A stretch of 64,000 bases of DNA from Escherichia coli (lineage in GTDB: Bacteria > Pseudomonadota > Gammaproteobacteria > Enterobacterales > Enterobacteriaceae), in assembly GCF_003334305.1 (NCBI RefSeq), contig NZ_QOWS01000019.1; one strand, given 5' to 3'. Shown here piece by piece: positions 12,001 through 15,000 of the stretch; position 1 is the stretch's first letter; each line of letters starts with the position of its first letter. The position numbers are program-made.

Positions 12001-15000
12001 GTTTAAGTGGGCCCCGGTAATCTTCTTCGCAGTCGCCAAACTTGACGAAGATTATCGGGGTTTTTGCTTTTCTGGCTCCTGTAAATCCACATCAGAACCA
12101 GTTCCCTGCCACCTTATGGCGTGGCCAGCCACAAAATTCCTTAAACGATCAGTAATCTAGCATGCTACGACACAAAGTAAAGTCTTTACTTTAGTATATC
12201 CAGTCTCTGCAGTTCATCTTTGATAATTTTCTCAATGAACTGAGCCTGTGTTATCCCCTCTCTCTCGCAGTACTCAACCATGAGATCTTTCAGAGGATTT
12301 TTGACAAAAACTTTTATCTCTTTGTGTGTAAGACGTTTTCTTGCAACAGCGGCCATTTGTTTCTCAGAGTCAGTCATAGGCTTACCTCTGCGCACAAACC
12401 GCTTTTGACTCAATGAGGAAGTCACTGCATTTTCTGTCTGCGACACCTCGCCTCCTCAATACTCAAACAGGGATCGTTTCGCAGAGGATACTACAGTTTT
12501 TTGAAATCAGCGACTTGAGAATTGTGACGAAGATCTGTGTTGTACTGCTCATATACCCAGGCAGCCCCGGCCCGAACCATAAACTGATTAATATTCATTC
12601 CGTCTGGTGCATAAACCTGCCCGAGAATACGACCATAACGATCTCGCTGAAAATATGTGACGGTAACCGTTTTTCCTGCGACCAGTGATCTCATCATGTC
12701 TGTTGACCACCGGCCATAATCCTGTTTCTTTTCCGGTGCATCAATATTTACCAGCCTGATCCGCACCGCCTTCCGTGAGTCCATTACCTCGATGGTATCA
12801 CCGTCCAGTACACGAACAACCCGTCCATGAATATATGCAGACAATACCGGCCATGAAAAGATAAATAATACCAGTGGAATATATTTCCTCATGTTATTCT
12901 CCATATCAAATAAATGGCACCTGTATTTCAGCCCCCCTGAATATCGCAGCACACATTGAATAAAACCTTATTTTGTGAAATTAATCACAAAATATAAAAT
13001 CGCGACTTAATACGGAAAAAACTCTGTGCTACTCAGAACAGTCCGGTCATACTGCCCGACCGGAGATTAAAAAAGTAAATCTCATGCATTATTCAGCCTT
13101 CTGACTCCTGGAGTAATGAAGGCTGCTTTTTTCGTTACACCCTTCCCCGGCAGCGCCGGTGGCAGTGTGCAGCCCTTTTTCGGGCAAACTGCTGCCAGTC
13201 TGTCCGGGGCGCAACACCGGCAGCCCGTCGCCATGCTTCTGCCGCTTCCATCCAGCGTCCACTGACCTCCAGAATAACGGCCCGGCTTCCGGCACGCTGC
13301 CAGCGCCAGACCTGACCGTTCCGTGAACTGTTTCTGAATCCATTCATTTTTCTGCCCCTCCCTTTTAGTTGTCAGTATTATTGTGGTAAATAATTCAGTG
13401 GACCGATTTCCTTTCGGGCATGGAAGTTATTTCCTTTTAAGCCTTATTGTTTCAGCCTCCTGAAGTTCTTCGGGGAGGCTTTTTTTATTTCTCATTAAGT
13501 ACGGCCTGAAGTTCTGCCTTTATCCGGTTCTGACGGCGAATTTTCGCCAGACGCTCTGCCGCATACGCTTCCTCTTCCTGAGAAATATGCTCCGTTACAT
13601 ACCCTTCCGTGTCATACCGGCAGGCACCGGCTTTCATGGCACACAGATAGCTTTCTGAACGGGTGATGGCCTTCAGCGCCCGGCGCAGTTTTTTATGCGA
13701 GAGCGGGATATTCCGCTGCGCCACGTCTTCCAGTAACACGTCCCGGATACCGCAGGCCAGAAGCCGGGGCGTGTCACCGTCAAATAATCCCGGCCACCAG
13801 GGCTTCAGGGTGTTCACAGCCTCATCCAGCGTGGGCAGGTTCAGATAAATGGACAGCGCTTGTCTGGCCTGCGCTTTTTTTGCCGCCAGCTCTGCTTCCC
13901 GGGCTGCTTTCTCGGCCAGCTTCTGCTTTTTCACCTTCCATTTTGGTGGCGTGGTGACATTGATGATGGTTTTCCGGCTGCGGACAGGCGTCCCCCCTTC
14001 TGTTTTCCGCTTCAGTGTCAGTACCGGTCGCTTCTGCTCTGTCATGCTGTGTTCTGCCTCTGACGAATCATCCTCTTGCGGCCAAAGATACCACACCCGT
14101 TACAGCGCCAGAACGCCCAGCACAGCCAGATGACAGGCATAGAACGTCGGGAAAAAATCTCCGGGCCAGAAACGGGGTAATGATTTCCCTGCACAGGACA
14201 CCAGACCAACGGTCAGCACCGTCATCACAAGGCCGGCCACCGCCGCGGCATCACTGGTGGCAAGGTTAAGCGCCGGAATAACAGCCAGCAGGCATGCAAC
14301 CAGCGCCAGACGTTCCGTTCTGTCTTCCGCCCGGTACAGCCGGTGGCTGACTGCCAGCATCAGCAGCCCGGCAATGCCGTAACTGGTGCCGGACAAAGGT
14401 CCCCACAGTGCCATCAGGAGAATGGCCGCTGCTGTACGCCACCCACTGCGCGTTTCACACCACGTCAGCACCTGTGCCGCCACTGCAAAGGCAAACAGGA
14501 TATTCCCCTCATACCACGGAAAGCCTGCCAGATAATACGCGAACTGGGCAATAATTCCCCATCCCCACAGCCGGTTAATGGCCGACTGCCTGATATGCGC
14601 ATGGCGGGACAGATTCAGCCCCCACACCAGAGCAAACAACGGAAAGGCTCCACGCCCGGCCAGAAACATCCACGTCTGGTCCAGATGCAGAATGCGGTTT
14701 GCGTGGTCCAGTACCATCAGCACCAGTGCCACCGTTTTGATGATATCCCGCTGTCCGGGTGACCAGACCAGCAACGACTGCAACCAGGTATCGGTCCGGG
14801 CAGCCAGTGAATCGTTACGTGTCGTGTTCGTGTTATCCGTTGTCATCAGTGTTTGTCTTCCTGTATCAGTCTCCGCCCAGGGTTTTCTCTTTCTGCAGGT
14901 CACGAACCATATCCTGCTCCATCTGCTGAAGTCGTTCCTGCAGCAGATTTTCCCGGGCAACCTCCCGGACCGCTTCCCGCTCCCGTTGTGATTCACGCAG

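Follow-up and report, generated by a model that had tools for sequence, protein, structure and literature searches.

Profile comparisons identify the predicted product of a 70-amino-acid (70-aa) open reading frame (ORF) beside finO on an Escherichia coli contig (NZ_QOWS01000019.1) as an arginine-rich homologue of the ANR (AraC negative regulator) family. The ORF lies within a 64,000-nt window (the whole stretch of DNA analyzed) and has finO, a thermonuclease-family gene and copB as its immediate neighbors (Table 1). An earlier note on this DNA had placed it between finO and the nuclease gene, and its position, its length and its strong Shine-Dalgarno (SD) sequence are as described there, the strand being minus. 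That note regarded the protein as a regulator that could not be named: the assignment to a family of small regulators stands, and a name can now be given, from NF033650 and from a profile-profile match to Aar and its relatives. The protein is identical to RefSeq WP_001311693.1 ('hypothetical protein') and has the basic, tryptophan-rich composition already noticed, with 15 Arg (21%), 5 Trp (7%), 1 Lys and 4 Asp+Glu among its 70 residues, a pI of ~12, a net charge of ~+11.7 and a mass of 8.2 kDa. An ANR-type gene at this place and the antisense RNA opposite it, AS-pc02, are both listed in public catalogues; near-identical alleles are named ANR in both RefSeq and UniProt.

Table 1. Features of the finO-distal region of the window, with positions given in window coordinates.
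Feature	Position	Strand	Details
Thermonuclease-family gene	12491..12952	-	Downstream neighbor of the ORF
AS-pc02 match (Rfam RF02876)	13056..13238	+	195.7 bits (gathering threshold 40); model positions 1-185 of 185
Terminator-like hairpin and T-run	13094..13132	+	Hairpin 13094-13125, T-run 13127-13132; intrinsic-terminator orientation for plus-strand transcription
CDS, 70-aa ANR-family-like small protein	13135..13347	-	ATG start, TAA stop
G+C-rich long imperfect hairpin	13145..13208		In the 3' third of the CDS (helix 3); main stem of the AS-pc02 model
Shine-Dalgarno sequence AAGGGAGGGG	13355..13364	-	GGAGG core 13361..13357, 9 nt from the ATG
Hairpin and T-run between the finO stop and the ORF	13455..13486	+	Oriented as a plus-strand terminator
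finO	13485..14045	-	Directly upstream of the ORF; NF010317, 359.7 bits; RefSeq-style CDS

The length of the ORF is not in itself significant evidence for a gene, because the surrounding stretch is 63% G+C and contains four more overlapping ORFs, 49-84 aa long. What sets it apart from a chance frame is the combination of its conservation, the breakage of the rival frame and its matches to a curated family profile. All close relatives examined have an ORF of equal length at this position, as do thousands of plasmids after finO, and the start codon, the SD sequence and the 70-codon length are all kept; upstream, the minus strand of the window reads AAAAGGGAGGGGCAGAAAA-ATG, and purine-rich SD sequences occupy the same position in relatives (AAGAGGAG, AAGGGGGA). 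Among the close relatives, variable sites are distributed 12/19/32 over codon positions 1/2/3, and pairwise dN/dS is ~0.2-0.5. The longest alternative frame considered (84 aa; 13089-13343, minus strand) contains stops in two relatives (L002 and L004), lacks its ATG in R100 and has no family match; the plus-strand ORFs that overlap the 70-aa ORF, also without a family match, were likewise rejected as genes. Conservation in related plasmids, which had been put forward as a check, is seen on a broad scale, the region matching 4783 plasmid records. By this pattern of conservation the ORF is a protein-coding gene of F-like conjugative plasmids, and the small protein of the earlier note appears to be the product of a genuine gene of translated type with a strong SD sequence.

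The only NCBIfam match of the protein is to NF033650 (ANR family), at 30.7 bits (E=2e-7). This is 1.3 bits short of the curated cutoff of 32, which is why the allele carries the label 'hypothetical'; alleles that are 88-93% identical in DNA are annotated 'ANR family transcriptional regulator'. The finO-linked clade straddles the cutoff, with scores of 33.1 bits for the sister allele on pAA, 33.5 bits for P0009 and 40.3 bits for the R100 type, and Aar itself scores 65.5 bits. BLASTP of the 70-aa protein against Aar gave no match, and homology between the two can therefore be seen only with profiles. When the clade alignment (A1) was compared by hhalign with an alignment of Aar and canonical ANRs (A3), the probability of homology was 97.6% (E=3e-12) over 53 ungapped columns. 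The canonical ANRs of A3 were taken in part from a representative search, because a search with Aar in a set of 5.8 billion proteins gave only 5 close matches; their NF033650 scores of 44-66 bits were confirmed first.

The published ANR signature consists of A10, E14, A22, W26, A29, W43 and R47 together with a conserved Cys, and essential residues have also been reported (PMC4983702). Six of these seven residues and the Cys are present in the 70-aa protein: A14, E18, A26, W30, A33, R49 and C53 of Aar align with A23, E27, A35, W39, A42, R58 and C62, positions that are invariant or nearly so across the finO-linked clade. At the seventh, signature W43 (W45 of Aar, where it is essential for activity), the clade has an invariant Phe, F54 in this protein. 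The founding papers describe ANR proteins as smaller than 10 kDa and 39-80 aa long (PMC4038620, PMC4983702), a range into which the product falls, and its AF2 model (mean pLDDT 82) has the expected three helices, at residues 5-29, 32-45 and 49-68. In these respects, and in being often borne on plasmids or mobile elements, it resembles Aar, Cnr of ETEC and Rnr of C. rodentium/EPEC. It differs from Aar in charge (+12 and a pI of ~12, as against +1.6 and 8.5) and in setting: the gene follows finO, whereas no AraC-type gene, fimbrial operon or dispersin/Aat locus lies beside it.

Structural comparison points the same way. The Foldseek neighbors of the model in AFDB50 are almost all annotated 'ANR family transcriptional regulator'. 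A few PerC-family proteins are also among them, although the 70-aa protein has no sequence-profile match to PerC; a PerC-like protein encoded by a PICI has been proposed as an ANR-type repressor (PMC11773190). Searches of the PDB by sequence, with the single protein and with the profile, returned just designed TPR-repeat proteins with weak scores, and by fold there was nothing at E<=0.001, the matches being weak TPR- or MIT-like three-helix modules; no solved ANR structure was found in either. The Pfam-A scan gave no match even at E<=10, the PADLOC defense models gave none, and PHROGs gave only phrog_2227 (unknown function, E=5e-7), a match that probably represents phage-borne ANR-like proteins.

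The pairing with finO extends well beyond the window. It is found in an E. albertii plasmid, pTA122, R100, pAA of EAEC 042 and others, and relatives at ~35-50% identity (P0128, P0134, P0147, P0148 and P0157) immediately follow finO or the end of traI, with a gap of 16 nt from the preceding gene in L016 and an 11-nt overlap in L019, L020 and L022. Because relatives this distant also sit just after finO, gene order makes it a conserved gene at the very end of the transfer region, and its linkage to finO/traI is maintained over deep divergence. Ordinary resistance or F-type plasmids make up most of the carriers, and in these no AraC-type gene is close by. Virulence plasmids that encode AraC-type activators carry the gene as well: pAA, with aggR, is one, and another is a Shigella flexneri plasmid of 226.6 kb that may be the invasion plasmid. 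Classical F has a truncated allele, the result of a 72-nt deletion between GCTGCCGG repeats that also removed the long hairpin in the 3' third of the CDS, and because F transfers efficiently, transfer as such does not require the gene. No experiments on any finO-linked ANR were found in the literature searched (ANR with finO/IncF, and older ORF names).

What such a protein might do can be considered from its characterized relatives. Aar, Rnr and Cnr act through protein-protein contacts with regulators of the AraC/XylS and H-NS families, Aar binding AggR and H-NS, and Rnr binding H-NS and Ler (PMC4983702, PMC5570504, PMC10148876). By this analogy we consider it probable that the three-helix protein encoded after finO is an adaptor or anti-factor directed against a DNA-binding regulator. 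It would represent a distinct Arg-rich ANR clade that is part of the backbone in conjugative plasmids of the F-like (MOBF/MPF_F) group; itself lacking a DNA-binding domain, it would bind such a regulator and block its action. For an F-like plasmid, H-NS or an H-NS/Hha complex would be the most plausible partner, as silencer of the tra promoter PY, which is known to be silenced by H-NS in F-like plasmids (PMC7303359); an AraC/XylS-type activator from the host or a co-resident element would be the alternative. The link to H-NS is drawn only from the behavior of Aar and Rnr, and the partner, target and phenotype proposed here are pure inference by analogy. Several observations count against the adaptor reading: the subthreshold NF033650 score and the empty BLASTP comparison, the Phe in place of the Trp that Aar requires, a charge compatible with RNA or DNA binding as well, and the truncated allele in F. 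In addition, no AraC/XylS gene adjoins the ORF, and the ten large non-tra ORFs of the window that were examined include none.

A more specific version of this reading is one that we put forward with considerable doubt. The Arg-rich finO-linked clade might regulate F-type conjugation or plasmid 'stealth': as the last product of the tra/finO transcript, the protein could bind H-NS (or H-NS/Hha) and so feed back on the silencing by H-NS of PY and other plasmid promoters, at a level set by AS-pc02. If so, a protein anti-silencer or feedback arm would be added to the FinOP/TraJ/H-NS circuit on thousands of resistance and virulence plasmids. There is some likeness here to Hha/RmoA and other plasmid-encoded H-NS modulators, which are also small and are thought to tune H-NS silencing of acquired DNA and conjugation, although Hha belongs to another fold and family (PF05321). 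The window has no hha. In R100 an hha-like gene, which we take to be rmoA, lies two genes downstream of the copy of the 70-aa ORF, and Hha-family and PerC-family genes follow distant finO-linked homologues.

From its composition the earlier note had suggested that the protein binds nucleic acid, and it could be imagined as an RNA-binding partner or helper of the RNA chaperone FinO, or as a histone-like DNA binder, in which the ANR-like helical hairpin is just a scaffold. The protein is certainly basic enough, and the finO-linked clade has net charges of +6 to +12 even among members at 35% identity, persistence over such divergence indicating that the charge is selected and is not a by-product of the overlapping RNA. 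The tight linkage to finO, with overlapping frames in some plasmids, would also fit. However, all characterized ANRs work through protein-protein contacts, and the model, predicted to be a TPR/MIT-like three-helix bundle, lacks an HTH, an RHH or any other known motif for binding nucleic acid; among solved structures the nearest folds, all with weak scores, are protein-binding modules of the TPR and MIT types. The Arg residues cluster at the disordered N- and C-termini and on helix 3, and contact between them and the acidic N-terminal domain of H-NS would be just as possible. We regard direct binding of nucleic acid as unlikely, though a clade so much more basic than Aar leaves room for direct contact with RNA or DNA.

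Less likely again is a canonical ANR role separate from conjugation control, in which the protein would serve the plasmid as a means of manipulating host gene expression, as an anti-activator directed at a virulence or stress regulator of the AraC/XylS type whose gene lies on the host chromosome or a co-resident element (for example GadX, or a regulator of the AggR/Rns/VirF type). Family homology would favor such a role, as would the many heterologous AraC members with which Aar interacts, GadX included, and the presence of the gene on the two activator-carrying virulence plasmids named above. Most carriers are, however, plasmids of the ordinary kind, pAA already has a dedicated Aar beside aggR, the conserved linkage is to finO/traI and not to any activator, and the residue lost to Phe is one that Aar cannot do without.

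Returning to the adaptor reading, transcription of the gene would come at least partly from upstream, by read-through out of finO and the tra operon. The hairpin between the finO stop and the ORF has no U-tract after it on the minus strand, which makes such read-through from finO plausible. In the 137-nt gap after finO, scanning for promoters gave no convincing sigma-70 candidate for the ORF, and the sole minus-strand match in the region of this gap (13375-13346) overlaps the start codon.

The AS-pc02 match lies antisense to the final 104 nt of the CDS (13135-13238) and to the 79 nt of 3' flank next to it. Its Rfam entry is described as 'Antisense to pHK01_099', from which we infer that pHK01_099 is the 70-aa ORF. 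AS-pc02 was reportedly presented in 2017, by Jiang et al., as a cis-antisense RNA from the IncFII plasmid pHK01. It is the RNA partner of the gene, not its product, and is known here from sequence alone, its ends and its expression being taken only from the Rfam model. A putative promoter for it, TGTGCT-17-CATACT, lies at ~13025-13053. R100, pTA122 and F carry the AS-pc02 element at the corresponding position, and the geometry in R100 (L010) equals that of the window (CDS 6214-6426, plus strand; AS-pc02 6323-6506, minus strand). A terminator-like hairpin lies within the match and ends 3 nt before the stop codon of the CDS, so a short form of AS-pc02 (~13056-13132) that does not overlap the CDS is possible. 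An RT-PCR signal for As-pc02 has been obtained from outer-membrane-vesicle RNA of one STEC strain (PMC12370729).

It is highly improbable that the ORF is incidental, held open by G+C richness over a selected RNA (AS-pc02 with the long hairpin, or a structure in the finO 3'-UTR): the strong Rfam match on the opposite strand, the near-invariance of the 3' third and downstream flank even where the 5' parts differ by ~25%, a folded RNA somewhat more stable than shuffles (z = -2.4) and the several overlapping ORFs that make open frames cheap here would all suit such an RNA, but dN/dS is below 1 with an excess of third-position changes, the start codon, SD sequence and length are conserved, protein-family profiles are matched, and homologues of the protein still follow finO in plasmids that lack RF02876 or in which it scores barely at threshold (L016, L019 and L022; L014 and L023, with 41-48 bits). 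For a coding gene with adaptor function, the convergent AS-pc02 would probably trim the level of the mRNA. As pairing is at the 3' end of the message and not at the ribosome binding site, its effect would be on mRNA stability or through transcriptional interference, and initiation would not be blocked.

As the finding of a sequence scan the 70-aa gene is ordinary. In E. coli, Shigella, Salmonella and Klebsiella, resistance and virulence genes travel mainly on F-like plasmids, which transfer under the control of the much-studied FinOP/TraJ/H-NS circuit; nearly all of these plasmids have the gene beside finO, in a pairing that survives to 35% protein identity. The ANR-type assignment offers a concrete hypothesis that is cheap to pursue, namely binding to H-NS/Hha or to an AraC-type regulator, with an effect on transfer or plasmid cost. 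In EAEC 042, the strain that defined Aar, pAA carries both aar (beside aggR) and the finO-linked ANR, ~4 kb apart, and this second ANR could confound or complement aar phenotypes.

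The window contains the distal end of an F-type transfer region, where the ORF lies on the minus strand between a thermonuclease-family gene and finO, as the earlier note had described. On this strand copB/repA2 is followed by the CopA RNA (RF00042) and then repA1, and CopA, upstream of repA1 as expected, confirms the replicon type. The strong Shine-Dalgarno sequence and the basic, arginine- and tryptophan-rich composition noted earlier are also present. In the Shine-Dalgarno sequence (AAAAGGGAGGGGCAGAAAA) the GGAGG core and the ATG are 9 nt apart, and the product has 15 arginine and 5 tryptophan residues, a pI of ~12 and a net charge of about +11.7. 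The length of the ORF by itself proves nothing, because the G+C content around it is 63% (51% for the window) and four further overlapping ORFs of 49-84 aa occur in the same stretch.

Positions and strands of the features discussed
Feature	Position	Strand	Remarks
ABC transporter with peptidase domain, bacteriocin/microcin-export type	53-2035	+	left end of the window
CopA antisense RNA, IncFII replicon	11978-12069	+	RF00042, 99.4 bits
copB/repA2	12186-12446	-	
Thermonuclease-family gene	12491-12952	-	
AS-pc02 ("Antisense to pHK01_099")	13056-13238	+	Rfam RF02876, full length, 195.7 bits (gathering score 40)
The ORF, ANR-like	13135-13347	-	ATG start, 70 codons, TAA stop
finO	13485-14045	-	RefSeq start
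traX	between traI and finO	-	
traI	14866-20136	-	
IS110-family transposase	58337-59308	+	near sopAB partition genes, right end of the window

When positions 12900-13500 were compared with PLSDB by megablast, 4783 plasmid records matched, and for 2616 of these the match spanned 80% or more of the query, so that the conservation across F-like plasmids that the earlier note had proposed as a check is extensive. The carriers are Escherichia, Klebsiella, Shigella and Salmonella, and the plasmids are mostly conjugative (MOBF/MPF_F). Every relative fetched (an E. albertii plasmid, two Spanish clinical plasmids, pTA122, pRHB36-C07_3, pGZM7d, R100, pAA of EAEC 042 and a Klebsiella KPC plasmid) has an annotated CDS in the same position immediately following finO, and this CDS is 213 nt long in the close relatives and 201 nt long in the Klebsiella plasmid; the E. 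albertii plasmid encodes the identical protein (WP_001311693.1, labelled "hypothetical protein"). The Shine-Dalgarno sequence and start codon are kept in the relatives, and the variable sites among six full-length alleles are distributed 12/19/32 over codon positions 1/2/3, with pairwise dN/dS of ~0.2-0.5. A protein alignment of 25 sequences has 14 invariant columns (M1, G20, L26, E27, A35, A36, W39, A42, R48, W51, F54, A55, R58 and C62). By these results the ORF is a real gene. The 84-aa frame that overlaps it contains stop codons in two relatives and has no ATG in R100. In an alignment of window positions 12940-13500 with eight relatives, R100-type alleles differ from the window by ~25% in the spacer towards finO and over the first ~45 codons, and are almost identical over the last ~25 codons and the downstream flank; this suggests a mosaic made by recombination, with its breakpoint close to the hairpin, or else an extra nucleotide-level constraint from AS-pc02.

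The gene is already catalogued, in that most alleles are labelled as ANR (AraC negative regulator) family members in RefSeq and UniProt, and the ORF that the earlier note could not name can be placed in this family. The product has no match in Pfam. In NCBIfam it matches NF033650 alone ("ANR family transcriptional regulator"), with E=2e-7 and a score of 30.7 bits, where the curated cutoff is 32. The sister alleles reach 33.1 (pAA), 33.5 and 40.3 bits, and Aar, the EAEC 042 member, 65.5. Scores on either side of the cutoff explain why RefSeq labels the window allele "hypothetical protein" and alleles whose DNA is 88-93% identical as ANR family regulators. BLASTP of the product against Aar gave no match; a profile-profile comparison of the clade alignment with one of Aar and canonical ANRs gave a probability of 97.6% (E=3e-12, 53 ungapped columns). 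This comparison pairs Aar A14, E18, A26, W30, A33, R49 and C53 with A23, E27, A35, W39, A42, R58 and C62, and the paired residues belong to the published ANR signature. Aar activity needs A14, E18, A26 and W45 (PMC4983702), and the sole departure from the signature is at W45, which is an invariant Phe (F54) in the finO-linked clade. AlphaFold, run with the clade alignment, predicts helices at 5-29, 32-45 and 49-68 (mean pLDDT 82), matching the three-helix prediction for ANRs, and the Foldseek neighbours in AFDB50 are nearly all labelled "ANR family transcriptional regulator", apart from a few PerC-family proteins. No close solved structure was found; the best PDB matches are weak, to TPR- and MIT-like protein-binding modules.

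When 1.84 billion representative proteins were searched with a profile, 62 relatives emerged, and genomic context was examined for seven among the more distant of them. The genes for P0128, P0134 and P0148 immediately follow finO in traI-traX-finO arrays, with a finO-to-ANR gap of only 16 nt in the distant F-like plasmid loci L016-L018. The gene for P0147 shares 11 nt with the end of a FinO/ProQ-domain gene (L019, L020), and that for P0157 likewise shares 11 nt with the end of a TraI C-terminal ORF at a locus where traX and finO are absent (L022). The contig of P0154 is too short to judge its context and carries a PLD-nuclease neighbour as for P0147, and only P0145, which adjoins two-partner secretion genes, has an unrelated context. 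These contexts mark the ORF as a conserved gene that closes the F-type transfer region, and part of the family clearly shares an operon with the gene before it. In the window the finO-ORF spacer is 137 nt and contains a hairpin with a T-run on the plus strand and no U-tract behind it on the minus strand; a promoter scan of this gap found no convincing promoter for the ORF, which would be transcribed by read-through from finO. Plasmid F (NC_002483, 1561-1749) carries a truncated 62-aa allele, in which a 72-nt deletion between GCTGCCGG direct repeats has removed the long hairpin and helix 3 and shifted the frame, and the ORF is therefore dispensable for transfer as such. F is defective in both finO (an IS3 insertion) and its ANR neighbour.

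The founding ANR papers describe members adjoining AraC-type genes, and Shigella members as a separate cluster with no context given (PMC4983702). Plasmid pAA (NC_017627) has both aar (46234-46434) and a finO-linked ANR (50186-50398); this paralogue, WP_001301409.1 (186-398 in locus L009), lies ~4 kb from aar (the same 46234-46434 in locus L008). We found no discussion of it in the ANR papers searched, and it could matter when aar mutants are interpreted. In L016-L018 (6471-7464), PerC-family and Hha-family genes lie 1-2 kb downstream of the finO-linked ANR, itself only ~35% identical, and the end of the transfer region looks like a recurring site for clusters of small regulator or H-NS-modulator genes.

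Hha- and PerC-family genes occur near homologues of the ORF in distant relatives, and an hha-like gene, which in R100 we take to be rmoA, lies two genes downstream in R100 and many relatives. Aar blocks DNA binding by AggR, whose central region it binds; it also forms oligomers and makes contact with further members of AraC/XylS (PMC4983702). H-NS is bound by Aar as well, and its DNA binding is altered (PMC5570504); the partners of Rnr are H-NS and Ler (PMC10148876). In F-like plasmids PY, the tra promoter, is silenced by H-NS, which TraJ displaces with ArcA (PMC7303359). By analogy, the ORF product would be an adaptor-type anti-regulator. On these plasmids H-NS or H-NS/Hha is the partner that seems most plausible; it may instead be an AraC/XylS activator from the host or a co-resident element. 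The earlier note had proposed a nucleic-acid-binding regulator. The regulator part stands, and direct binding of nucleic acid is unsupported and seems unlikely, given that known ANRs bind AggR, AraC/XylS proteins, H-NS and Ler; the Trp-to-Phe change and the extreme basic charge leave some room for it, and both call for caution over an Aar-like partner. Net charge is +6 to +12 across the whole finO-linked clade, marking it as a selected trait of the clade; for Aar and the proteins closest to it the charge ranges from almost neutral to mildly basic. No functional study or explicit mention of the finO-linked clade was found in the literature searched.

The 3' part of the gene is overlapped by AS-pc02, an antisense RNA already known as an Rfam family and reportedly defined by Jiang et al. 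2017. It is complementary to the final 104 nt of the CDS and its 3' flank, and occupies the corresponding position in R100 (229.5 bits), pTA122 and F; two more distant plasmids give a marginal match (41-48 bits), and the Klebsiella variant and the most distant finO-linked loci give none. Its main stem is a long G+C-rich hairpin (~13145-13208) within the helix 3-coding part, with a terminator-like hairpin and T-run (13094-13132) upstream of the stem and ending 3 nt before the ORF stop codon; the region folds moderately more stably than shuffles (z = -2.4). Since the match stops short of the ribosome binding site, any control of the ORF by AS-pc02 would act through mRNA stability or transcriptional interference. 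As-pc02 has been detected by RT-PCR in vesicle RNA (PMC12370729). The hairpins at 13094-13132 and 13455-13486 flank the ORF, and with their T-runs on the plus strand they are oriented as intrinsic terminators of transcripts that run antisense to finO and the ORF, not of the transcripts from these two genes. A short and a long form of AS-pc02, or of another plus-strand RNA, may be defined by them.

Between the ORF and the thermonuclease gene lies a perfect CRP-type core palindrome, TGTGAaattaaTCACA (12974-12989), which occurs once in the 64 kb of the window (chance expectation 0.06) and is kept in relatives. The palindrome coincides in part with the -35 of a promoter-like site on the plus strand (TTGTGA-16-TAAAAT, 12973-13000), and it could place the nuclease gene or a plus-strand transcript under cAMP-CRP control. 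For the nuclease, the RefSeq-style start is GTG 12952 (153 aa); ATG 12892, preceded by GGAGAATAAC as Shine-Dalgarno sequence and followed by the signal-peptide-like MRKYIPLVLFIFSWPVLSA, is the more likely start. The gap from the thermonuclease stop to the copB/repA2 start (12446-12491) is only ~44 nt, and the same interval in R100, pTA122 and the otherwise near-identical E. albertii plasmid holds hha, often with a DUF2726 gene; the window plasmid has lost, or never had, this hha-type H-NS co-modulator. The ABC transporter and the IS110-family transposase are accessory plasmid content unrelated to the ORF.
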